Positions 7,453 to 38,705 of a stretch of DNA of 53,484 nucleotides are shown here, in pieces. The stretch is from Acidobacteriota bacterium. GTDB taxonomy: Bacteria > Acidobacteriota > Aminicenantia > UBA2199. How positions within the stretch are numbered: position 1 is the first letter of the stretch; each line of letters opens with the position of its first letter. Location of the stretch: positions 1 through 53,484 of the forward strand of contig JALOLC010000008.1 in assembly GCA_025456175.1 (NCBI GenBank), given 5' to 3'. The notes beneath the pieces were generated by a model. That model did no database searches and was not told the DNA's origin. It saw only the letters and a program-made list of their open reading frames with translations. The translations under genes were made by a program, and so were the position numbers.

Positions 7453-8823
7453 GTGAGGGCGACGCTGCCTCTGCGCCGCTTCCTGGCGCGCACGCTGACC
7501 CCGGCGCGCAGCTTCGTCATCAGCTTCCTGCTGGTCATTCTCGCCGGCACCGCGTTGCTGTTCCTGCCTGCCGCCGCGAGCCGCCAGCCGCTCGGCTTCG
7601 TCGATGCCCTGTTCACCTCGGCATCCGCCGTCTGCGTCACAGGGCTCACCGTGGTCGACGTGGGCCGCGACCTCTCCCTTTTCGGCCAGATCGTCACCCT
7701 CCTGTTGTTCCAGATCGGCGGCCTGGGCATCATCACCTTCTCGCTGGTGTTTTTCGGACAAATGGGGCGCAGCCTCTCGTTCCGCGGCCGCGAACTGCTG
7801 CAGAGCACCTTTCTGCATACGCCGCGGCGCGACTTCTTCCGTATCCTGCGCTTCGTGGTCGCCGGTACTTTTGCCATCGAGGCCATTGGCACCCTGTTGC
7901 TGTTCATCCGTTTCCTTGCCGATTTTCCTCCCGGGCAGGCTTTCCATCGCGCAATCTACCACGCGGTGTCGGCTTTCAACAACTGTGGCTACTCGCTTTT
8001 TTCGAACAGCCTGGCGAATTACCGCGATGACTGGATGGTCAACCTGGTGAACATCGTCCTGATTGTGACGGGCGGCTTGGGATTCATCGTCATATACGAA
8101 TTGCGCAATCGCTGGCGGGGCCGGCAGAAGCGCCTGTCGTTGCATGCCAAGGTGGTGATTTTGACCACCGCGGCGCTGATCGTCGGCGGCGCCCTTTTGT
8201 TTTATTTTTTCGAGTCCAACAACGTCCTGAAGGACACCGGCGGCTCGGGCCGGTTTCTGGCTTCACTGTTCCAGTCGGTCACGGCGCGCACCTGCGGCTT
8301 CAGCACCGTGGATGTCGCCGCCCTGACCAATGCCACCCTCCTGGTGCTGATGACGCTGATGTTCATCGGTGCCTCGCCGGGATCGACCGGGGGCGGCGTC
8401 AAGACCTCCAGCTTCGCCCTGCTGATGCTCATGATCTTCAACCGCCTGCGGGGACGCGACGGCGTGACCATCTTCAACCGCACCGTGCCGGCGGAGATCC
8501 TGGTGCGCACCGTCGCCATCGTCATCGCCTCGGCCTTGTCGGTGCTGGTCATCGCCTCGGTGCTGCTGCTGGCCGCCGGACACCCGGGGACCGACTTGCA
8601 GTCCAGCCGCGGCCTGTTCGTTGAATACGTTTTCGAAACGCTGTCGGCTTTCGGCACCGTCGGTCTGTCCATGAACGTCACGCCCGGACTCAACGACATC
8701 CAGAAGCTGGCCCTCACCCTGCTGATGTTCATCGGCCGGGTCGGGCCGCTCACCATGGCCTACGCCTGGTCATCGTCGAAGCGAGGATTGGTTTACGCCG
8801 AGGAAGCGGTGATGGTCGGTTAG
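7453..8823 (+). CDS. ktrB: TrkH/KtrB family K+ transporter membrane subunit
   Basis: Multi-TM protein with SPGSTGGGVKT and GLGIITFS filter-like loops. GTG 7453 lies 4 nt after AGGAGG (7443-7448). The track start at 7294 overlaps the previous gene. Confidence 0.8.
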   Translation: MRATLPLRRFLARTLTPARSFVISFLLVILAGTALLFLPAAASRQPLGFVDALFTSASAVCVTGLTVVDVGRDLSLFGQIVTLLLFQIGGLGIITFSLVFFGQMGRSLSFRGRELLQSTFLHTPRRDFFRILRFVVAGTFAIEAIGTLLLFIRFLADFPPGQAFHRAIYHAVSAFNNCGYSLFSNSLANYRDDWMVNLVNIVLIVTGGLGFIVIYELRNRWRGRQKRLSLHAKVVILTTAALIVGGALLFYFFESNNVLKDTGGSGRFLASLFQSVTARTCGFSTVDVAALTNATLLVLMTLMFIGASPGSTGGGVKTSSFALLMLMIFNRLRGRDGVTIFNRTVPAEILVRTVAIVIASALSVLVIASVLLLAAGHPGTDLQSSRGLFVEYVFETLSAFGTVGLSMNVTPGLNDIQKLALTLLMFIGRVGPLTMAYAWSSSKRGLVYAEEAVMVG

Positions 8824-24702: not shown

Positions 24703-26034
24703 ATGAAAAAAAGCCTTATTTTGCTCTTGTGCGGATTGCTGCTCGGCGCCGCCGCGGCCTGGGCGGTGATCCACTTCGTCGTTCCGCGCTGGGACCGCTC
24801 GGCCGTGGACAACACCTTCTGGCAGGTGGCCTCCCGGCTGGACCAGGGCGGCGAAGCCTTTGCCTACTTCCATGCCGAGGAGGTCGGCAAGGCGGCCATG
24901 ACCATCCTCGACAGCCTGAAGCGGAACGCGACCGCGCTGCCCGCTGCGCAGCAATCCCAGGCCAGGCAGGGCCTGGGCATGCTGGAACTGATGCTCAAGG
25001 GCTACGGCTTGGACGAGCTCAGCGGCCTCGGCTTCAGCTCTTTCGCCGTCAGGCCCGGCTTGCACCGCGTCCGCGTCGTGCTCCACCACCGCCCGGGACG
25101 CGACAAGGGGCTGATCTGGAACATGACCGGCCCGGCGCCGCGGCCCCTGGACGAACTGGAGCTGCTCCCCGCCGGCACGGCCCTGGCTCTCATCTCCGAC
25201 TACAACCTGGTCAAGCTGATCGAGTGGGCGGGCCGGATCGGCCCGATGATGGGCACCCAGGGCCAGTCCGATGCCCCGGCCCCCGGCGCCGACCAGGCCA
25301 TGGCCATGATCAAGGCCGGGCTGCAGGCGGCCGGCATCGACTCCGACCGCCTGTTCAAGTCGTACGGCGGCCGCCTGGGATTCCTGCTGGTGCTCGACCC
25401 GGAAAAGAGGGTGACGCTGCCGGCACAGGGCAAGCCCCTGTCGATTCCCGAGCCGGCGTTCGCCCTGCTCATGCGCGTCAACGACAACTACCTGTTCGAT
25501 ACCCTCAAGGCCAAGCTGGCCGCCCTGGGGCAGCCCAAAATCAGCGAGGAGGGGGGGATGAGGAAAATCGCCTTCCCGCCGCTGCCCGCCCCCTTCCCCC
25601 TGGAGCCGGCCATCGTCCAGAAGGGCGAGTGGCTGCTGGTGGCCTCGCGGCCAGCCCTCGCCGACGAGATGCTCGGCAAAAAGACGCCGCGCCTGAGCGC
25701 CGGCGCCGATTTCAAGGCCATCGCCACCAAGGCCCCCACCCTTGGCAACGGTTTCAGCTATGCCAGCCCGGTGCTGCTGCGCCTGGTCGCCCAGGTCTTG
25801 CGCGAGAACAAGGGCGGGCTGCAGCCGGAGTCGGCGCTGCAGAAGATCACGTCGCTTCTCGACGCCAACAAGGGGCTGTACTGGGTGGTGGAGAACTCCA
25901 GCCAGGGGCTGACCTACACGTTCAACCATGGCTTCGAGATCTCCTCCCTGCCCGCGCTGGTCGAGGCCTTCGTCGAGATCGCCGCCGCGAAGGCGAAGGA
26001 GAAAGCGGCGGCCGCGGTGCCGGCAGAGGAATAG
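24703..26034 (+). CDS. hypothetical membrane-anchored protein
   Basis: N-terminal anchor MKKSLILLLCGLLLGAAAAWAV. No catalytic motif recognised. Confidence 0.6.
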   Translation: MKKSLILLLCGLLLGAAAAWAVIHFVVPRWDRSAVDNTFWQVASRLDQGGEAFAYFHAEEVGKAAMTILDSLKRNATALPAAQQSQARQGLGMLELMLKGYGLDELSGLGFSSFAVRPGLHRVRVVLHHRPGRDKGLIWNMTGPAPRPLDELELLPAGTALALISDYNLVKLIEWAGRIGPMMGTQGQSDAPAPGADQAMAMIKAGLQAAGIDSDRLFKSYGGRLGFLLVLDPEKRVTLPAQGKPLSIPEPAFALLMRVNDNYLFDTLKAKLAALGQPKISEEGGMRKIAFPPLPAPFPLEPAIVQKGEWLLVASRPALADEMLGKKTPRLSAGADFKAIATKAPTLGNGFSYASPVLLRLVAQVLRENKGGLQPESALQKITSLLDANKGLYWVVENSSQGLTYTFNHGFEISSLPALVEAFVEIAAAKAKEKAAAAVPAEE

Positions 26035-26157: not shown

Positions 26158-26856
26158 ATGAAAACCCTGATTGCCATGCTGCTGCTCCCTTTGTCCCTGA
26201 TCCTGGCGGCCCAGGAGGAGCCGCTCGTTGCCGCCGATTCCCAGGATCAGGGGGCGTTTTTTTTCGAAGCCACCAGCCAGTATCTTTCCTTCGCCCTCGC
26301 TGACCTGGACGGAGCGGGGATCATTGGCAATGCCGACCAGGTGTTCTTTCTCCCCCGGATCAGGCCCAGCCTGGGCCTGGGTTTCGGCTTCGGCCGCCGC
26401 TTCCGCTCGGGGCTCTGGGCGGTCACCTACCTGGTCTCCGGACACGACGCCGACTTCCAGGCGCGGGAGAGCACAGCCGTGTCGCGCCTGGTCCAGGTCC
26501 ACTCGCGCATTTTCCTGAACCGCGCCTCGAGACTGCGGCCCTTTCTTCACGTGGGGCTCAGTTTTCCCTGGCTGAAAGTTCGCGACAATGTTGCCGACGG
26601 CAACGGCGTATTGCACGATGCCACCTACGCGGGCGTGGGCGTCAACGGCGGCGCCGGCCTTCTGGCTCCGCTCTCCTCGCGCATGTTCTTCAGCGCCAGC
26701 CTGGTCTGCCGCTACCTGGGCTACCTCTATGCCTATGGCCCGGTGAAGGGGATCGACGTGACCGATCTTTTCGACGGTGTGAGCGGCCCGCGCCACCGCC
26801 GTTTCCTGCGGGCTCCGGTCGTCGCGCTCGAATTAAGCTTGGGCTATGAGTTATAG
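26158..26856 (+). CDS. outer-membrane beta-barrel protein (small porin-like)
   Basis: Signal peptide MKTLIAMLLLPLSLILAAQ and alternating-hydrophobic beta-strand pattern. Confidence 0.55.
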   Translation: MKTLIAMLLLPLSLILAAQEEPLVAADSQDQGAFFFEATSQYLSFALADLDGAGIIGNADQVFFLPRIRPSLGLGFGFGRRFRSGLWAVTYLVSGHDADFQARESTAVSRLVQVHSRIFLNRASRLRPFLHVGLSFPWLKVRDNVADGNGVLHDATYAGVGVNGGAGLLAPLSSRMFFSASLVCRYLGYLYAYGPVKGIDVTDLFDGVSGPRHRRFLRAPVVALELSLGYEL

Positions 26857-26942
26857 TGACAAGTAACAAGTGACAAGTGACAAGGAAAAATGCAATTTCA
26901 AATGGATGTTCATGTCATTGCGGTTCCTCGTCACTCGTCACT
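26856..26942. repeat. GTGACAA-heptamer hairpin element, copy 1
   Basis: GTGACAA GTAACAA GTGACAA GTGACAA GGAA, then a 36-nt loop, then TTCCTCGTCACTCGTCACT. 17 of 19 stem positions are Watson-Crick. Confidence 0.8.
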
Positions 26943-29119: not shown

Positions 29120-29770
29120 TTGAACGTAATCGACCTGACCCGGTTCATCAGCAGGACCATGCCGGTGTTTCCGGGCACCGAGCCGCCGCGCCTGGAAGAG
29201 TCATTCACCATCGAGCGCAACGGCTTTGCCGAGAAAACGCTCCACCTCGTCTCGCATACCGGCACCCACATCGACGCCCCCGGCCATATCCTTCCCGGAG
29301 CCATTCGCCTCGACGGTTTTCCCGCCGGCCGCTTCCTGGGGCCGGGCGTCGTTCTGGACGCCTCGGCCGTACGCGGGCGACATGTTGAAATCGGCGATAT
29401 CGCGGCGGATGAACCACGGCTGCGCCGGGCCGACTTCGCCTTGTTGCACACGGGGTGGGCCAGGCACTGGGGCGCGGCCGAATACTTCGGTTCCTATCCG
29501 GTCCTTGCGCCTGCCGCCGCGCAGTGGCTGGCCGCCATGGAGCTCAAGGGTTTCGGCGTGGACGCCATCTCGGCCGACGAGGTCGAATCGTCCGCCCTGC
29601 CCGTCCACCGGGCGCTGTTCGCCAGGAACATGCTGATCATCGAGAATCTGGCCGACCTGGGGCCATTGCTCGGCAAGGAATTCATCTTCTCCTGCCTGCC
29701 GTTGAAGATCGCCGATGCCGACGGCTCGCCAATAAGGGCAGTGGCTATGCTGGACTTGCTGACGAAGTGA
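29120..29770 (+). CDS. cyclase family protein (kynurenine formamidase-like)
   Basis: HTGTHIDAPGH motif. TTG start lies 6 nt after GGAGG. Confidence 0.75.
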   Translation: MNVIDLTRFISRTMPVFPGTEPPRLEESFTIERNGFAEKTLHLVSHTGTHIDAPGHILPGAIRLDGFPAGRFLGPGVVLDASAVRGRHVEIGDIAADEPRLRRADFALLHTGWARHWGAAEYFGSYPVLAPAAAQWLAAMELKGFGVDAISADEVESSALPVHRALFARNMLIIENLADLGPLLGKEFIFSCLPLKIADADGSPIRAVAMLDLLTK

Positions 29771-29776
29771 CCCGTA

Positions 29777-29872
29777 CTCGGTGTAGGGTGCAAGGTGCAA
29801 GGTGAAGATGCTTATTGGATTTCTTGTCCTGTCTTTCCACCTGGCACCTTCTACCTTACACCCTGTGCCGAG
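29777..29872. repeat. GGTGCAA-heptamer hairpin element
   Basis: GGTGTAG GGTGCAA GGTGCAA GGTGAAG faces GCACCTT CTACCTT ACACCCT. The stem covers 28 positions: 22 WC, 4 G.U, 2 mismatches. Confidence 0.75.
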
Positions 29873-29880
29873 AACGCTGT

Positions 29881-30705
29881 TTACTTCCTGACCCTGCCTC
29901 TGACGTTGCGGATATCGACCTCGCCGCTGCCGGCATCCTCGATGGTGACGTCCTTTTCCACGCCGTCGATTACGATGTTGCCTGAGCCGTCGTCGATCCG
30001 CACCGAGCCGCGGACTCCGCGCAGATCGATCTCGCCGGAGCCGTCGTCAACGACGACGTCGCCGCCGGCGTTCTTCAGCTCGATGTCGCCCGAGCCGTCC
30101 TCGATCTCGACATGGCCGGCAATGTCAGACAGATCCAGGCCGCCGGAACCGTCTTCGATCTCCACCGCGCCCTTGACGTTGGCCAGCCGCAGGTCGCCGG
30201 AGCCGTCCACGATTTTCACCGGACCCGCGATCTCATCCAGCATCGCGTCTCCCGATCCGTCATTCAGGTCCAGGCTCCCGCCCAGGGAATTGATCGTGAC
30301 ATTCCCCGAGCCGTCCTCCACGCTGAGGTTCATGCTGCGCGGCAGGCTGACATCGAGGTCGATGCGGGCTTCCCGGCCGCCGAAAAGCTTGTCCAGGAAG
30401 AATTTCTCATCGATCTTGGCCAGCAGCACGGCTTCGGAGCCGGTCTTTTCGAGCTTCAGTATGACGTTCTCCTTTCTGAATTCCGCAAGCTCGCCCATGC
30501 CGATGCCCTTCACGCGAAGCATGGCAGTGACCTCGATGCGCTGCAGCCCTTCCTTCCCCTGGACTTTCAGGTAGCCGGCCCCGCAATCGATGCGCATGGC
30601 CCTGCAGCCCGACGCATCCAGCGTCAGCGTCTCCCGGCTCTCCGCCGCCTGGACCGTTGCCAGTAAAAACAGGAATATCAGGCAAAATAAAGTCGTTTTC
30701 TTCAT
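29881..30705 (-). CDS. DUF4097-like beta-solenoid repeat protein (putative adhesin), secreted
   Basis: Signal peptide MKKTTLFCLIFLFLLATVQA. About 8 repeats of the form ...V.I.DGSGDI.L... GAGGAGG RBS lies before ATG 30705. Confidence 0.7.
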   Translation of the reverse strand: MKKTTLFCLIFLFLLATVQAAESRETLTLDASGCRAMRIDCGAGYLKVQGKEGLQRIEVTAMLRVKGIGMGELAEFRKENVILKLEKTGSEAVLLAKIDEKFFLDKLFGGREARIDLDVSLPRSMNLSVEDGSGNVTINSLGGSLDLNDGSGDAMLDEIAGPVKIVDGSGDLRLANVKGAVEIEDGSGGLDLSDIAGHVEIEDGSGDIELKNAGGDVVVDDGSGEIDLRGVRGSVRIDDGSGNIVIDGVEKDVTIEDAGSGEVDIRNVRGRVRK

Positions 30706-30812: not shown

Positions 30813-31832
30813 CTAGGTTGAAATCCCCTGCATGCCCGAAAACTTGTCCTTTGCCAGAAGCGACCATGACAGCGCGCCGCAATAGCCGCTCAGCCTGGAT
30901 GCGGCCACGATCGCTTCCGGGGAACGCGACGAATTGCGGGTCGGGAACTCGCCAAGGAGCAGCGGCCGGTCGAGGCCCAGCTCCGCCACCGGCTGTTCCA
31001 GCGGTGCCACGCTATCCCAGCGGTCGTACCAATGCACCTGGTAGAAGTCGAGACCGCAGCCGCGCACCAGGGGCAGGCCGGCGGCGTTGCCCAGGCCGAC
31101 GGTGGCGAGATGATCGCTATGGCGGTGAACCAGGCGGGCCACTCTCCGGATGAAGCGGCGCATGGCCGGGAAGGAGACGGCGGGCCCGATGCTCCCCCCG
31201 CCCCAGCCGCGGGTGGCCCACTCGGGCTCGTTGATGATGTCCCAGGCCAGGATGGCCGCTGAGCGGCCATAGCGCTTCAGGAGCGGGGCGAGCACCCGCC
31301 GGCGCAGGGCCAGCTGCTTGTAGGTGTTGGTGATGACCCTGCTCCTGCCGCCGGTCTGCACGCCGTTGAACATGGAGGCGGAGTCGAACCAGAGGAAATC
31401 GAACAGCACGAAAACCACCTGCATCTCCTCACGGACCACGGCCTCCAGTGCGCAGTCGATGTCGCTGAACAAGCGCTCGTCGGGCCCGAGCGGCGTTCCC
31501 GCCCTGCTGAAGCGGATGCCGGCGCGGCCGTCGCAGAAAAGGAACCAGCGGACGACGCGGGCGCCGCGTTCCCGCAGGGCGCGCAAATGGCGGCGCAGGT
31601 CTTCCTGCTTTCCGGGACTGGCCAGTCCGCCTGCCGGGCTCCAGGCATTGGCGCCGAAGTCGTTGCCGTAGGAGAGCCAGGGGAGGTTGGCTCCCTCGAG
31701 GAAGGGCAGGGGGGCGTCCTGGCCCCTTTTGACCAGGGCGGGAGGGGGCGCCGCCGGCGCACGGAATAGCCTTCTCCAGGCCCGGTAGCAGCGCAGCCGC
31801 AGGATGAAAAAATACTTGAGCAGGACACTCAC
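30813..31832 (-). CDS. glycoside hydrolase, GH5-like TIM barrel (tentative)
   Basis: WDIINEPEW (acid/base NEP) and LLLGEFP (nucleophile-like). GTG start. Confidence 0.5.
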   Translation of the reverse strand: MSVLLKYFFILRLRCYRAWRRLFRAPAAPPPALVKRGQDAPLPFLEGANLPWLSYGNDFGANAWSPAGGLASPGKQEDLRRHLRALRERGARVVRWFLFCDGRAGIRFSRAGTPLGPDERLFSDIDCALEAVVREEMQVVFVLFDFLWFDSASMFNGVQTGGRSRVITNTYKQLALRRRVLAPLLKRYGRSAAILAWDIINEPEWATRGWGGGSIGPAVSFPAMRRFIRRVARLVHRHSDHLATVGLGNAAGLPLVRGCGLDFYQVHWYDRWDSVAPLEQPVAELGLDRPLLLGEFPTRNSSRSPEAIVAASRLSGYCGALSWSLLAKDKFSGMQGIST

Positions 31833-31838
31833 GGCCGC

Positions 31839-31867
31839 ATTGTAGGCGAAGAAGCCGTGGTTATCAA
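31839..31867 (-). promoter_or_regulatory. sigma70-type promoter, leaderless layout
   Basis: Minus strand reads TTGATA (31867-31862), a 17-nt spacer, TACAAT (31844-31839), then 6 nt to GTG 31832. Confidence 0.5.
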
Positions 31868-31876
31868 GAAGCGATT

Positions 31877-31995
31877 CAAGGGAAGAGAGAGGGAAAGCAG
31901 AGGGAAGACAGAGTGAAAGAAAAAGAGGTGTCAGCGGAGCTTTTTTGGGCTCCAGATTCCCTCTCTCGCTTCTGTCTTCCCCTTGTTTCTCTGAG
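31877..31995. repeat. polypurine / polypyrimidine inverted repeat
   Basis: 31878-31928 is 48/51 purine and 31957-31992 is 33/36 pyrimidine. Two perfect 11-bp complementarities: 31885-95 with 31957-67, and 31902-12 with 31971-81. Confidence 0.7.
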
Positions 31996-32044: not shown

Positions 32045-34624
32045 ATGCATATCGATATCCCGTTCCAGAAGTACGTCCTGGAGAACGGCCTGACGCTGAT
32101 CGTCCACGAGGACCGCAAGGCGCCGATCGTGGCCTGCAACGTCTGGTACCATGTCGGCTCGAAGAACGAGAAACCGGGCCGCACCGGCTTCGCCCATCTC
32201 TTCGAGCACCTGATGTTCAACTACTTCGAGAATGTGCCCACGCCCGCCTGCGACCTGGCCTTGTGGCTGGAATCGGACCGCATGGGCCATCTCCAGGGCG
32301 CCGTCAGCCAGGCCAAGCTGGATGAGCAGCGGGGGGTGGTGCAGAACGAGAAGCGCCAGTACGACAACGAGCCCTACAATGTCGCCGAGGAGCTCATCGC
32401 CAAGGCCTGCTTCCCGGCCGGCCATCCCTATTCCTGGACGGTGATCGGCTCCATGGCTGACCTGCAGGCGGCCACCCTGCAGGATGTCCACCAGTGGTTC
32501 GCCACCCATTACGGTCCCAACAATGCCGTGATCGTTATCTGCGGCGACATGGACGCCCAGACGGCACTGGCCAAGGTCAAACGCTATTTCGGCGACATCC
32601 CGCCCGGCCCGCCCGTCGCCCGTTATGAGGCCTGGATCGCCAAGCGCAGCGGCGAGCAGCGGCAAGCGGTGGAGGACCGCGTTCCCCAGGCCCGGATCAT
32701 GAAGATCTGGAACGCGCCCCAGGCCTTCAGCGCCGAGAACGACCAGCTGGGGCTGGCCGCGCAGCTGCTGGGCTCGGGCAAGACCTCGCGCCTGTACAAG
32801 CGCCTGGTCTACGATGACCAGATCGCCACCGACGTGGCGGTCTACGTTGATACGCGGGAGATCGCCGGGCTGTTCACCATCCAGGCCGACGTCAAGCCCG
32901 GGGTGGAGATCGCCGTGGTGGAGCAGGCCATTGATGAGGAGATGAAGCGCTTCCTGGCGTCCGGCCCCCAGCAGAAGGAGCTGGACAAGGTGCGCATGCA
33001 GTGCCTGGCGCGTTTCGTCCGCGGCTGCGAGCGCATTGGCGGCTTCGGCGGCAAGTCGGACATCCTCGCCCGCAGCCAGGTATTCGGCAGCAGCCCCGAC
33101 GCCTACCGCCGCACCCTGGAGAACATCGCAGCGGCCACGCCGGCCTTGATCAGGGAGGCCGCCGTCCGCTGGCTCTCCGACGGCGTCTACGTGCTGGAGA
33201 TCCGCCCTTATCCCGAGCTGGCCGCAGGCCGGGAGACGGTGGACCGCAGCCGCCTGCCCGAACCGGGTCCGGCGCCCGCCGTGCAGTTTCCCGAGTTCCG
33301 GCGCTTCACCCTGGACAACGGCCTGAAGGTCATGCTGGTCGAGCGTCATGCCGTCCCCATGGTCCGCCTGAACCTGGTCCTGGACGCGGGCTTTGCCACC
33401 GACCAGACGGGGATCGCCGGCACGGCCGAGCTGGCCATGGCCATGCTCGACGAGGGGACGACCCGGCGCAGCGCCCTGCAGATCAGCGAGGAGCTGGCAC
33501 TGCTCGGCGCCGGGCTGGGGACTGGCTCCGACCTGGACACCTCCGTGGTGTCGCTCTCCTCGCTGAAGGAGAAGCTCGATGCCGCCCTGGACATCTACGC
33601 CGACGTGATCCTGGACCCGCAGTTCCCGGAAGCCGATTTCCAGCGGCTGTTGAAGCTGCAGATCGCCCAGATCCAGCAGGAAAAGAGCTCGCCGTTCTCC
33701 ATGGCCTTGCGCGTCCTGCCCAGGCTGCTGTACGGATCCGGGCACGCCTACGGTACCCCCTTCAGCGGCACCGGCTACGAGGACTCGCTGGCCAGGCTGA
33801 CCCGCAGGGAGACGGTCGCCTTCCACCAGGCCTGGTTCAAGCCCGACCATGCCACGCTGGTGATTGTGGGCGCGACGACGGTCGGGGAGATGAAGCCCAG
33901 GTTGGAGAGGCTGTTCCAGGGCTGGCGCCCGGGGCCGATCCCGCCGAAGAACATCGCCGCCGTTGTCCCGCGCGCCCGGCCGGCCGTCTACATCATCGAC
34001 AAGCCCGCCTCACCCCAGTCGGTGGTCATCGCCGGCCAGCTGGCGCCTTCCTCGGCCGATCCCGAGCGCATCGCCATGGAGACCATGAACTTCATCCTCG
34101 GCGGCGACTTCGTCTCGCGCTTGAACATGAACATCCGCGAGGAGAAGCACTGGAGCTATGGCGCCGGCTCCTTCTTGTCCGGCGCCCGCGGCCAGCAGCC
34201 GTTCATCGCCTATGCCCCGGTGCAGGGCGACAAGACCCGGGAGACGATGGTGGAAATCCGCAAGGAGCTTGAGGGCATGCTGGGCCAGAAGCCGATCACC
34301 CAGGATGAATTCGCCAATGCCAAGAAAAGCCAGACCCTGCAGCTGCCGGGCTACTGGGAGACAATGGCGGCCGTAGAGGGGTCCCTGGTCGAGATGGTGC
34401 GCTACGGGCTGCCCGATGATTATTACCAGCGCTATCCCCAGCGGGTGCTCCAGCTGCAGGTTGCCGACCTGGACCGCGCCGCGCGCAAGGTCATCCATCC
34501 CGAGAACCTGGTTTGGGTGGTGGTCGGCGATCGGACCCTGATCGAGCCGCCGATTCGCGAACTCGGCTATGGCGAAGTCTTCGTCATCGACAGCGACGGC
34601 CAGCCGTCCAGCAAGCAACAGTGA
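32045..34624 (+). CDS. M16 family (pitrilysin/insulinase) zinc peptidase, fused double-module form
   Basis: HLFEHLMF (HxxEH) inverted zinc motif. 859 aa with two M16 halves. Confidence 0.85.
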   Translation: MHIDIPFQKYVLENGLTLIVHEDRKAPIVACNVWYHVGSKNEKPGRTGFAHLFEHLMFNYFENVPTPACDLALWLESDRMGHLQGAVSQAKLDEQRGVVQNEKRQYDNEPYNVAEELIAKACFPAGHPYSWTVIGSMADLQAATLQDVHQWFATHYGPNNAVIVICGDMDAQTALAKVKRYFGDIPPGPPVARYEAWIAKRSGEQRQAVEDRVPQARIMKIWNAPQAFSAENDQLGLAAQLLGSGKTSRLYKRLVYDDQIATDVAVYVDTREIAGLFTIQADVKPGVEIAVVEQAIDEEMKRFLASGPQQKELDKVRMQCLARFVRGCERIGGFGGKSDILARSQVFGSSPDAYRRTLENIAAATPALIREAAVRWLSDGVYVLEIRPYPELAAGRETVDRSRLPEPGPAPAVQFPEFRRFTLDNGLKVMLVERHAVPMVRLNLVLDAGFATDQTGIAGTAELAMAMLDEGTTRRSALQISEELALLGAGLGTGSDLDTSVVSLSSLKEKLDAALDIYADVILDPQFPEADFQRLLKLQIAQIQQEKSSPFSMALRVLPRLLYGSGHAYGTPFSGTGYEDSLARLTRRETVAFHQAWFKPDHATLVIVGATTVGEMKPRLERLFQGWRPGPIPPKNIAAVVPRARPAVYIIDKPASPQSVVIAGQLAPSSADPERIAMETMNFILGGDFVSRLNMNIREEKHWSYGAGSFLSGARGQQPFIAYAPVQGDKTRETMVEIRKELEGMLGQKPITQDEFANAKKSQTLQLPGYWETMAAVEGSLVEMVRYGLPDDYYQRYPQRVLQLQVADLDRAARKVIHPENLVWVVVGDRTLIEPPIRELGYGEVFVIDSDGQPSSKQQ

Positions 34625-34708
34625 AAAGTAAATGGTGAAAAGAAAGAGGGGCTGAAAGATTTCGGTGAAAATTACCCTGCATTTCACTTTTCACTATTCA
34701 CTTTTCAC
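34621..34708. repeat. GTGAAAA-heptamer hairpin element
   Basis: GTGAAAA GTAAATG GTGAAAA G faces TTTCACT TTTCACT ATTCACT TTTCACC. 22 positions: 20 WC, 1 G.U, 1 A.C. The first GTGA contains the M16 stop. Confidence 0.8.
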
Positions 34709-34765
34709 CAGGCAAATGAACTTATTTCCCCAGGAACTCGTTCATTTAATGAACCAGGAGGCAAC

Positions 34766-35254
34766 ATGACCGATACCAAGGATCTGCGGGCAAGAATGGC
34801 GGCACTGGCCGGTGGGGCCGTACTCGTCCTGCTGGGCGTGCTGTTCCTGCTGAATAATTTCTACCATTTTCTGGACATCCGGCGCACCTGGCCTCTCTTT
34901 ATGCTGATCCCGGTGATCCCCTTGGCCATCCAATGGATTGAGAAGGGCAGGGCCGCGGCCGGGGCCGTGATTCCGATCACGATCCTGACCTTTTATTGCG
35001 GCCATTTCCTGTGGCTGGCCCATTCGTCTTGGGCGGCAGCCGGTACCTCCTGGCCCAACTACCTGATCGGTCCGGGGCTGGGCTTCCTGTTCCTGTTCCT
35101 GATCGAGCGCCGGGCGGGGCTGCTCGTTCCCGCGTTCGTCCTGCTCGGACTGGGCACGGCCTTCTACAGCGGCATTTACGGCAGTTCCCTGCCGCTGGGC
35201 GGGTTTCTGGTGCTGGCCGGTGTTATCCTGGTGATCGGAAGCAGGAAAAGTTAA
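34766..35254 (+). CDS. hypothetical integral membrane protein (4-5 TM)
   Basis: Hydrophobic segments throughout. AGGAGG lies 5 nt before the ATG. Confidence 0.6.
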   Translation: MTDTKDLRARMAALAGGAVLVLLGVLFLLNNFYHFLDIRRTWPLFMLIPVIPLAIQWIEKGRAAAGAVIPITILTFYCGHFLWLAHSSWAAAGTSWPNYLIGPGLGFLFLFLIERRAGLLVPAFVLLGLGTAFYSGIYGSSLPLGGFLVLAGVILVIGSRKS

Positions 35255-35323: not shown

Positions 35324-35452
35324 GGGGAGTTCTTTGACAGGGATGACTGAGTCATGCAGAACGGTTGAGAGCCCGGCTCGATGAACCCGTGCCAACCTTC
35401 CCGGCGCCCCGCCGGGAAAGGTGGAAACGCCTTTCACCAGGGAGGTGAAGCC
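35324..35452 (+). promoter_or_regulatory. structured 5' leader, unclassified
   Basis: 13-nt palindrome ATGACTGAGTCAT (35343-35355). 9-bp GC hairpin at 35398-35418. 7-bp bulged hairpin at 35420-35438, abutting the SD GGGAGG. Confidence 0.4.
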
Positions 35453-35698
35453 ATGACGGAAGTTACCTTTTTTGAAGATTTTCATTGCTTTGAATATCAC
35501 ACGCCGCAAGGTGCCGCGCAGCGCTTCCGCTATTACCTCTATTCCCCGGTATACGAGCGCATCCCGTTTTTCATCACGATATTAACGCAGGGGGAGTTCG
35601 CTCAGGAAAAAGTGACCTACTCCAGCGATTTTATCCCTTGTAGACTGGCTCGCCACTTGCAGGGCTTGAAGCGAACTGAAGTGACAAGTGAGGAGTGA
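35453..35698 (+). CDS. small hypothetical protein (81 aa), atypical composition
   Basis: GGGAGGTGA RBS lies 4 nt before the ATG. AT-rich third positions, unlike the neighbours. No homology recognised. Confidence 0.4.
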   Translation: MTEVTFFEDFHCFEYHTPQGAAQRFRYYLYSPVYERIPFFITILTQGEFAQEKVTYSSDFIPCRLARHLQGLKRTEVTSEE

Positions 35699-35774
35699 CA
35701 AGTGACAAGAAAGAAAAGGAAAACGGGTGAACGATTGATTTGATGCTGTTCCTCGTCACTGGTTACTTGTCACT
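35680..35774. repeat. GTGACAA-heptamer hairpin element, copy 2
   Basis: GTGACAA GTGAGGA GTGACAA GTGACAA faces GTTCCTCGTCACTGGTTACTTGTCACT. A 10-bp and a 9-bp helix flank a 4x4 internal loop. Confidence 0.8.
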
Positions 35775-38302: not shown

Positions 38303-38590
38303 ATGAAAAAGTTCATCGTGTTGTTTTTCATTGTCGTTCTGCTGTTTTCGTGCGCTCCCGGGCCGAACCGGCTGGCGAAGACGGCCAATCCCGAGGGGAA
38401 AGTAGCCGGCTTCTGGCAGGGTTTGTGGCACGGCCTGATCGCCCCCATCACGTTCATCGTATCCCTTTTCAGCAGCAAGGTCGCTCTCTATGAAGTGCAC
38501 AACAACGGCGGCTGGTACAATTTCGGTTTCGTGCTGGGCGCCGGGTTGTTCCTCAGCGGCGGCATCCTGGGCCGCAAGAAAAAGAAGTGA
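38303..38590 (+). CDS. small membrane lipoprotein, hypothetical
   Basis: Lipobox LLFSC after the signal peptide, two further hydrophobic segments, and a KKKK tail. Confidence 0.6.
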   Translation: MKKFIVLFFIVVLLFSCAPGPNRLAKTANPEGKVAGFWQGLWHGLIAPITFIVSLFSSKVALYEVHNNGGWYNFGFVLGAGLFLSGGILGRKKKK

Positions 38591-38705
38591 CGAGTGACAA
38601 GTGACGGGGTTTGAACGAACCTTCGTGACGCGTGACAAGGAAGAAAAACGTCTTTATTTCGATCGATGGGTATTTCTCGTCACTCGTTGCTTGTCACTTG
38701 TCACT
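38586..38705. repeat. GTGACAA-heptamer hairpin element, copy 3
   Basis: 38586-38608 pairs with 38683-38705 (19 WC plus 4 G.U over 23 positions). The loop carries an extra CGTGACG CGTGACA AGGAAGAAAAA arm. Confidence 0.8.

Follow-up and report, generated by a model that had tools for sequence, protein, structure and literature searches.

Are the two arms of a bacterial intergenic hairpin complementary because selection has kept them so, pair by pair, or because both are copies of one array? The question is raised by an element at positions 34621-34708 of a 53,484-nucleotide (nt) stretch of genomic DNA from an Acidobacteriota bacterium (lineage Aminicenantia, UBA2199; GenBank assembly GCA_025456175.1, contig JALOLC010000008.1, positions 1 to 53,484, forward strand), hereafter the window. 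The element begins at the stop codon of an M16-family peptidase gene with an array of GTGAAAA-type heptamers and ends with the complementary array, and it provides a test case in which the two origins of complementarity can be separated. An original prediction, made from the letters of the window, took the change of unit in both arms relative to neighbouring elements as the mark of a maintained structure. The reading that we favour, at roughly even chances, places the element in a family of intergenic palindromes that occurs throughout the lineage and turns over quickly; it would be the gene-less form of cassettes carrying a PF05635 gene, with arms that are renewed together, and would probably serve as a 3'-end hairpin. 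Below, G000 labels the genome under study, other G-numbers are compared genomes and C-numbers are contigs.

The architecture of the element proved to be as originally described. Reading the sequence directly, we found the 5' arm, GTGAAAA GTAAATG GTGAAAA G, at 34621-34642 on the forward strand, and it pairs without gaps with the 3' arm, C TTTTCAC TATTCAC TTTTCAC, at 34687-34708 over 22 positions, comprising 20 Watson-Crick pairs, one A.C and one G.T (G.U). The 44-nt spacer or 'loop' between the arms (34643-34686) starts with a purine-rich stretch and ends with six bases (34681-34686) that begin an extra, unpaired unit, so that the 3' side holds four units in all: ATTTCAC (34681-34687), TTTTCAC (34688-34694), TATTCAC (34695-34701) and TTTTCAC (34702-34708). 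An additional (fourth) GTGAAAA lies within the loop at 34665-34671, and of the 12 copies of this heptamer in the window, where 4.2 were expected, five are inside the element. Unit position 5 is A throughout both arms and C in the GTGACAA elements starting at 26856, 35681 and 38586, which confirms the fifth-position difference that had been pointed out. The predicted RNA fold of 34610-34720 reaches -34.8 kcal/mol (z = -4.07), a stability that none of 200 dinucleotide shuffles attained, and the loop taken alone is weakly structured (z -0.47). The element occupies a 141-nt spacer between two co-directional genes on the forward strand, namely the M16 peptidase gene at 32045-34624 (859 amino acids (aa), assigned from its open reading frame (ORF), its translation and the Pfam matches PF00675 (Peptidase_M16) and PF05193 (M16_C)) and a LiaI/LiaF-like membrane-protein gene at 34766-35254 (162 aa). 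The M16 stop codon, TGA at 34622-34624, falls within the first heptamer, and together with TAA at 34629 and TGA at 34636 it shuts all three frames within 17 nt of the 5' arm; on its bottom strand the 3' arm carries four TGA and one TAG.

The element is a member of a genome-wide family. A search of the whole G000 assembly (2.19 Mb, 188 contigs, 63.6% GC, 73.5% complete) for period-7 arrays yielded 158 arrays and 70 hairpin loci, which fall into about 13 unit classes. GTGACAA, which had been treated as the archetype from which the M16 element departs, turned out to be a minor unit (class GTGACRA, 5 loci, three of them inside the window), and GTGAAAA the majority, with 33 loci; the remaining classes are GTKATGC (7 loci), AGACGTY and ACGGTNN (4 each), GTRACGC, GTRATTC and AAGGTGY (3 each), GGCAAAA, AAATTCC and GTTCGAR (2 each) and two singleton classes (1 locus each). 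Sister elements in the window lie at 26856-26942 (unit GTGACAA) and, in spacers between convergent genes, at 29780-29862 (GGTGCAA), 35681-35774 (GTGACAA) and 38586-38705 (GTGACGA/GTGACAA). Across the 70 elements the median arm is 25 nt long, with arms of at least 20 bp in 46, and the median spacer is 58 nt; the loops of the family are weakly structured (mean z -0.48), and therefore the complementarity resides in the arms. Some loci depart from the simple form. At C84, C45, C136, C16, C118 and C100 we observed composite loci, in which arrays of differing units follow one another and the outer arms are non-complementary; hybrid arms occur, for example at C84, and mixed units can share a single array, as TTTTCAC with TTTTGCC at C100. 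The GTKATGC class differs from the GTGAAAA elements, with their unique loops, in being a genuinely dispersed repeat: its members share a common core of 100-150 nt with 78-92% identity, present in at least 10 copies in G000 (C136:16420-16640, C101:28838-28990 and 31778-31955, C165:1682-1948, C132:1324-1428, C45:6919-7034 and 7559-7663, C79:9275-9368 and C19:370-496 among them).

The orientation of the arrays is absolute. In a census based on periodicity only, comparing neighbouring arrays 15-250 nt apart, a G-rich array was followed by a C-rich one in 36 cases and a C-rich by a G-rich one in none, with 8 same-sense pairs, and the unit was identical (at most 1 mismatch) in 32 of the 36 G-type/C-type pairs. 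For inward reading, two or more frames are shut by the arms of 53 and 57 of the 70 elements; outward, the arms are stop-free in 51 and 58. The conserved GT[G/A]A motif, combined with this fixed polarity, presents a TGA or TAA in all frames from either side, which renders insertion at gene ends harmless, and this stop-first property may be what selection sees.

In accordance with the position of the M16 element, the family is found at gene 3' ends. Using 1757 gene calls made with a simple codon-usage model, we found 57 elements with genes on both sides, of which 26 lie between convergent and 21 between co-directional genes, while 10 were called divergent, some of these calls being doubtful. As all intergenic regions of at least 60 nt (n = 768) divide into 125 convergent, 441 co-directional and 202 divergent ones, the elements are enriched in convergent regions with an odds ratio of 4.3 (P = 7e-7). 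Elements between co-directional genes have a median distance of 9 nt from the upstream stop and 48 nt from the downstream start, an arm lies within 20 nt of the gene end at 56 of 73 facing ends, and in 16 the stop codon is within the arm.

Beyond G000, four consecutive GT[G/A]A-NNN units were present in all 26 sampled congeners, with 13-326 matches each. Across the class, 65 of 151 genomes have the pattern, and none was found in family f3 (0 of 26 genomes) or in f4, f7, f10, f11 and f12. From family to family within the class the GT[G/A]A core stays conserved, and the three-base tail is genome-specific (for example GTGAATK, GTAAATR or GTAAGGA), with GTGAAAA arrays occurring in 15 of the 26 congeners. 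Period-7 arrays number 0.5-10.7 per 10 kb in the congeners, and none was found in 40 kb of G020, which belongs to another family of the class. A scan for exact (GTGAAAA)3 matches, with one genome per species, returned many phyla among the matches listed, and of 85 such arrays examined from other phyla, again among the matches listed, 21 had an inverted partner downstream and none had one upstream.

The orthologous sites revealed how quickly the elements change. The M16 and downstream membrane-protein genes are syntenic in the congeners (protein identity 75-79%), and all nine congeners retaining the downstream gene have a heptamer hairpin at the M16 site, its minimum free energy beating that of shuffled sequences in eight and being marginal in G006. 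The arms are of GTGAAAA type in G000, G001, G003 and G006; in G005, G007, G009, G014 and G018 the left arm consists of GTGATGA or GTGATAA and the right arm of TCATCAC or TTATCAC; and in G020 a canonical GC-rich hairpin with a T-tract, TTTCTT, directly follows the M16 stop. The site was already of GTGAAAA type in the ancestor common to G000, G001, G003 and G006, and the GTGAAAA unit is not a GTGACAA derivative. In a small arm alignment of this site, built by hand and falling into two clades, 87.8% of cells pair as against 77.9% after shuffling, and the covariation score of 0.316 (0.119 shuffled) was reached by none of 500 shuffles; the covarying columns are unit positions 5-7, and the GTGA core is invariant. 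The two arms need not be equal in copy number, since the left and right unit counts at this site are 3 and 4 in G000, about 5 and 2 in G001 and 5 and 2 in G006, and arms of 10 and 5 units exist in G009. The C-terminus of the M16 peptidase is different in every congener genome because the ORF continues into the element up to a stop. In a comparison of G000 with G018, identity is 48% for the loops (z 0.7) and 67% for the spacer downstream of the element (z 5.5), so that turnover is faster inside the element than in the flanking spacer; the loop of the M16 element is single copy in G000, with clear homology only to the corresponding spacer of the congener G001 (76%, z 7.1).

Sister sites behave in the same manner. 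At the 26.9-kb site G003 retains the GTGACAA arms and the loop, G018 has arms of GTTGATG type and G007 of GTAGNNA type despite near-identical flanks, G001 has different units again, and G005 and G014 have a 19-nt spacer without an element. At the 29.8-kb convergent site, five genomes show five different solutions. As the same unit classes (GTTCGAA, AGACGTT, GGAATTT, GTGATTC, GTGACGC and GTAGNNA) recur across the genus, we conclude that there is a common repertoire and that sites switch among its members.

The arrays are linked to genes of the PF05635 family, whose products are the four-helix-bundle (S23p) proteins of 23S ribosomal RNA (rRNA) intervening sequences. A PF05635 gene is present in 71 of the 151 genomes of the class, and its presence parallels that of the arrays from family to family: 50 of 65 genomes versus 49 of 65 in f1, one of 26 versus none of 26 in f3, and none for either in f7 and f10-f12; the exception is f4, with four of four versus none of four. 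All 12 sampled PF05635 loci of the class are bracketed by inverted heptamer arrays with the same polarity and repertoire as the gene-less hairpins, their units including GTGACGC, GTGACGA, GTGATKA and GGGTMTA. Two of these cassettes, from different families and with different arm units, sit between livH and livM of a branched-chain amino-acid ATP-binding cassette (ABC) transporter operon (G010:C50 about 24988-25485, corresponding to L031 12886-13383, and L164 in G027). In Coxiella burnetii, a PF05635 ORF of the 23S rRNA intervening sequence lies in the loop of a stem formed by 28-bp terminal inverted repeats, which is cut by RNase III (PMC4990558). Separately, we noted that PF05635 genes are clustered at a spacing of 1-5 kb on several contigs (for example G011:C9, G063:C42, G095:C4 and G022:C7), and that in G010:C50 (L031 566-16120) about 15.5 kb of inserted sequence interrupts precisely the convergent spacer corresponding to window positions 29770-29881, the site of the GGTGCAA hairpin; judged by eye, the insertion contains DNA methyltransferases, a GIY-YIG-like protein and the liv operon with its PF05635 cassette.

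Do these findings mean that pairing itself is selected? The explanation that survives best beside our own holds that the element is an RNA hairpin, be it a terminator, an attenuator or a stabiliser, selected for pairing only, so that the heptamer is free to drift as long as the other arm compensates; we judge it unlikely but serious. It would account for the significant stability of the stem, for hairpin potential being retained in eight of nine orthologs, for the covariation of units between the arms and between the clades at the M16 site, and for the canonical terminator at the equivalent G020 position. Three GTGAAAA elements also take on a terminator shape, since their loop contains a GC hairpin and the TTTTCAC arm comes immediately after it, which fits this explanation as well. 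True arms in the genome are, moreover, 87% complementary, compared with 56% for column-permuted units of equal composition, and the arms are thus clearly more complementary than shuffled heptamer arrays, so that the outcome named beforehand as refuting the original proposal did not occur.

Such complementarity, however, is a property of the unit and not of the individual element. In the GTGAAAA class (n = 30), partner arms match at 89.0% and arms of different elements at 88.7% (permutation P = 0.43), which means that non-partner arms match equally well, and we found no element-specific covariation beyond unit identity among these 30 elements. The predicted arm-to-arm covariation is present at the level of units, in the 32 of 36 pairs with the same unit and in the switch at the orthologous site, and is absent within the GTGAAAA class. 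Departures from the element's own consensus were confined to the left arm in 98 cases and to the right arm in 91, were matched in both in 36 and differed in both in 13, so that about 80% of single-unit variants are uncompensated; in the M16 element, one variant position is matched, with GTAAATG contributing the T and TATTCAC the A, and two are unmatched. Permuting units within arms did give 36 compensated variants against 17 expected, but we discount this result because the register had been picked for the highest number of matches and a large number of the 'compensated' positions are located at the margins of arrays. Genome-wide the mismatches comprise 51 G.T, 45 A.C and 106 others, and an RNA-wobble strand test of co-directional spacers counted 15 G.U and 19 A.C on the sense strand (P = 0.6), that is, no bias towards the pair that RNA tolerates. 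Selection for pairing alone likewise leaves unexplained why the GTRA core is conserved, why arms can be unequal (5 versus 2 units in G006, 10 versus 5 in G009) or hybrid (C84), why the interior is replaced wholesale, and why the genome is biased to a few units when the sequence should be free. Of the proposal that the structure and not the sequence is maintained, then, the unit-level covariation stands, while the conserved GT[G/A]A core, the missing G.U bias, the unequal and hybrid arms and the faster replacement of the interior do not agree with it. Taken together, the conserved core, the equal match of partner and non-partner arms, the lack of wobble bias, the unequal and hybrid arms, the ancestral GTGAAAA state and the fast-changing interior point to renewal of whole arms or whole elements rather than to stepwise compensatory substitution.

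Clustering of units by genomic region, which had been suggested as a sign of local gene conversion, was seen in part: adjacent elements on the same contig belong to the same class in 10 of 24 cases versus 5.8 expected (P = 0.03), and all same-contig pairs in 13 of 34 versus 8.2 expected (P = 0.06). The clustering is weak; it supports some local spread and is not decisive.

How could the arms be renewed together? Each arm consists of three to four tandem heptamers, GT[G/A]A followed by three variable bases, with the complement in the other arm. In the scheme that we favour, the arms would match as mirror-image copies of one array that are made and renewed together. They would be complementary for that reason, and not through base-by-base compensatory substitution. 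One likely route is slippage within the arrays combined with conversion between the two inverted arrays; the other is replacement of the whole element from the small genus-wide unit repertoire. Joint renewal of this kind would explain why element-specific covariation and wobble bias are absent, why arms are unequal and why the interior turns over so fast. As to function, the transcribed 22-28-bp stem at the end of the M16 messenger RNA would most likely act as a barrier to 3' exonucleases or as a point of weak termination or processing. What makes such a role as an RNA 3'-end hairpin plausible is where the element lies, that it has persisted at the M16 site while its sequence was turned over completely, and that G020 has a canonical terminator at the equivalent position.

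Several observations weigh against this reading. A terminator scan of 34300-35000 gave no terminator or promoter consensus in the spacer, and the loop, 44 nt long and weakly structured, and the absence of a GC stem with a U-tract do not agree with a classical terminator. Terminator motifs of the canonical kind (hairpin plus T-tract) occur at 14% of G000 gene 3' ends with a spacer of at least 40 nt, and they are not depleted in the intergenic regions bearing elements (12% versus 14%). No direct sign of insertion turned up, whether as a duplicated target or as an empty site with clean borders. PF05635 has no match in G000, nor is there a PF05635 gene in G047, which is 93% complete and has 230 array matches, and therefore the cassette protein is not needed for keeping the arrays. 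RNase III, identified in 15 of 25 congeners, was not found in the subclade: the PF14622 model has no match in G000, G001, G002, G003, G006, G007, G047, G059, G072, G113 or G137, and the second RNase III model, PF00636, none in the five genomes in which it was run (G000, G001, G002, G047 and G113), of which G113 is 97%, G002 95% and G047 93% complete. This removes the best precedent for the use of such stems. Finally, the conserved GTRA core could instead reflect arrays bound by a sequence-specific protein. As a side observation, genomes without rnc rank among the richest in GTRA arrays.

A bolder form of the link to PF05635, which we regard as speculative and quite unlikely, would unite the hairpins with the PF05635 cassettes as alternative forms of a single mobile or self-renewing system not described before. 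Here an active process, possibly acting through an Avd-like PF05635 protein or another reader of the GT[G/A]A core, would create complete stop-first palindromes, or exchange existing ones, where genes end and between the genes of operons, taking units from the genus-wide repertoire; the gene-less copies would be miniature derivatives.

That the arrays are duplex-DNA sites for a protein reading the GTGA/TCAC core at 7-bp spacing, with the inversion reflecting the geometry of the protein and not a hairpin, is improbable in our judgement. The ribbon-helix-helix omega repressor, which binds WATCACW heptads, would be a parallel. Binding of a 'global regulator' or of an IHF/HU protein has been proposed for the paired tandem repeats of Geobacter (Aklujkar 2009, PMC2700814). 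A core-reading protein would suit the retention of GT[G/A]A with free tails across families, the long (median 58 nt) and mostly unstructured (mean z -0.48) spacers, the occurrence of hybrid-arm and single arrays, and a period of strictly 7 bp. Yet the elements stand at gene 3' ends and in convergent spacers, not at promoters; the three-base tails, for which a core-only reader would have no need, agree between the arms in 32 of 36 pairs; the same architecture is built from units without the GTRA core (GTTCGAA, GGCAAAA and GGAATTT); and no candidate protein was identified.

Even less support remains for the arrays being functionless by-products of slippage in AT-rich post-gene spacers and of template switching at quasi-palindromes, tolerated at gene ends; this is decidedly improbable. 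Variable copy number, unequal arms, units mixed within one array (TTTTCAC with TTTTGCC at C100), the variable presence of the element (G005 and G014 have none at the 26.9-kb site) and the lack of element-specific constraint are all what such a process would leave behind. Neutral arrays, on the other hand, would hardly persist as a heptamer hairpin in all nine congeners with the downstream gene despite complete sequence turnover, nor would they be expected to have absolute polarity (36:0 in G000 and, among the matches listed, 21:0 in other phyla), a core conserved across families, a sharp distribution (26 of 26 in the genus and, although GC content is similar, none of 26 genomes in family f3) or the same arms tied to PF05635 cassettes.

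RNase III requires a duplex of two turns. That the element is a processing site at which this enzyme cuts the M16/LiaF-like transcript, in the manner of the 23S rRNA intervening-sequence stems or the intercistronic sites of phage T7, is very improbable: the arm length (median 25 bp; at least 20 bp in 46 of 70) suits such a duplex, the PF05635 cassettes with like arms belong to the class whose 28-bp stems RNase III cuts in Coxiella (PMC4990558), and rnc lies 0.4-4.2 kb from one or more PF05635 genes in seven of the 15 rnc-bearing congeners (G013:C7, G011:C9, G004:C17, G135:C125, G018:C7, G010:C13 and G008:C145), but neither PF14622 nor PF00636 was found in G000, G001, G002, G047 and G113, and PF14622 was likewise not found in G003 and G006.

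The closest published parallels to the family that we describe are the GGGAATC paired repeats of Xanthomonas and the paired tandem repeats of Geobacter metallireducens. The Xanthomonas GGGAATC and Nostoc GGGGAYT repeats are tandem 7-mers, mostly of about four units, which are intergenic and either lie no more than 50 bp from a stop codon or overlap one on the sense strand (Rehm et al. 2015, PMC4692102). Xanthomonas has 70-75 loci in which two convergent arrays can form a stem-loop, and there most repeats are transcribed, with transcript starts and stops lying near repeats more often than near controls (PMC4692102). The M16 element resembles the paired repeats of Xanthomonas in having three left and four right units, inverted about a 44-nt spacer, with the stop codon in unit 1, and the family shares with the Xanthomonas and Nostoc repeats its rarity between divergent genes and an array type conserved between species with varying length. 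Those genomes, however, each use one G-tract unit that has been read as G-quadruplex forming, whereas the GTGAAAA element has no G-run, and the family differs further in its approximately 13 unit classes in one genome, its GT[G/A]A core, its unit swaps at orthologous sites and its stop-bearing arms. In Geobacter metallireducens, classes 1-3 consist of three to five tandem 7-9-mers (GTTGCTYN, TCTCCGTS and MTYCTGA) in opposite-strand pairs with variable spacing (Aklujkar et al. 2009, PMC2700814); there are several classes in one genome, they are absent from the sister species, and IHF/HU or regulator sites were proposed (PMC2700814). Tandem short units, inverted pairing and multiple classes are common to both, although the units themselves differ, and that study reports no analysis of stop codons and gene 3' ends or comparison of orthologous sites (PMC2700814). 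The TAACTGA direct repeats of Beggiatoaceae and the cyanobacterial short tandemly repeated repetitive (STRR) sequences are abundant intergenic tandem heptamers of unexplained function and patchy occurrence across phyla (MacGregor 2015, PMC4679880). The TAACTGA units carry stop codons, like those of our family, but STRR and TAACTGA repeats usually form a single direct array, in many cases immediately before a start and with one unit per genome, and not inverted pairs at gene ends. The PF05635 and 23S rRNA intervening sequences, whose patchy distribution suggests horizontal spread, likewise have an inverted-repeat stem of about 20-30 bp (about 28 bp there, 22 bp here), but the M16 element has a 44-nt spacer without an ORF and lies behind a protein-coding gene, not in rRNA. 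In the literature we found nothing on GTGAAAA arrays, and the multi-unit repertoire with a common core, orthologous unit switching, stop-first polarity and the PF05635 link were found in no paper.

Other known classes were considered and rejected. Repetitive extragenic palindromes (REP), bacterial interspersed mosaic elements (BIME) and REP doublets forming hairpins (REPIN) are similar in being extragenic, multicopy hairpins at gene 3' ends and in convergent spacers with fast turnover; the family differs from them in having no conserved REP sequence, which would be an imperfect palindrome of 20-40 nt recurring in inverted doublets, and in having tandem-repeat arms and unique GTGAAAA loops, and as the heptamer arms alone are shared, the REP/REPIN assignment was rejected. 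A link to REP-associated tyrosine transposases (RAYT) was rejected as well, Y1 transposase homologs being present in 123 of 151 genomes, including all 26 of the array-less family f3. One such gene in G000, at C61:4689-5543 (L034 1006-1863, minus strand), encodes a 285-aa IS200-like/RAYT-like Y1 transposase (PF01797) and adjoins an ORF that, by eye, resembles a HicB-type antitoxin. A miniature inverted-repeat transposable element (MITE) does not fit, the loop having no second copy in the genome and no target duplication being seen. An intrinsic (Rho-independent) terminator was rejected on account of the AU-rich stem, the loop of 44 nt where such terminators have 3-8 nt, the sequence CAGGCAAATG after the stem and the lack of a consensus match in 34300-35000, and a known RNA family because no relevant match was obtained with Rfam 15. 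At the gathering score, the sole Rfam 15 match was an S-adenosylmethionine (SAM) riboswitch (RF00162) at 35349-35459 (57.7 bits), and a scan of 34450-34900 by E-value gave chance-level microRNA and small nucleolar RNA matches alone.

The surroundings of the element contain further features. Between it and the LiaF-like gene, at 34714-34765 on the forward strand, lies a separate small hairpin formed by AAATGAAC and GTTCATTT, accompanied by a third AATGAACC copy and the Shine-Dalgarno motif AGGAGG. Unlike the adjoining heptamer element, this small hairpin is kept in all congeners (67-81% identity), and it may be a translation or leader structure. The M16 protein of the window, at 859 aa, is shorter than the open frames of 890-935 aa in congener orthologs, and matches split at residues 52-64; judging from this alignment, it seems to lack about 60 residues directly after the HxxEH zinc motif. 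Further downstream, the SAM riboswitch precedes a small conserved ORF, and in the window there is no heptamer hairpin between the LiaF-like gene and the riboswitch, a place where G007, G009, G014 and G018 have one with GTAGNNA or GTTGAAA units.

For genome annotation, the elements matter because they provide many stop codons and remodel the C-termini of proteins. Paired heptamers near stop codons have been reported without explanation in Xanthomonas, Nostoc and Geobacter, and the present lineage offers an informative form of the phenomenon. If the hairpins and the PF05635 cassettes are indeed one system, that system would account for the simultaneous switching of unit in the two arms, for the preference of each genome for particular units, and for where the intervening sequences of 23S rRNA came from.

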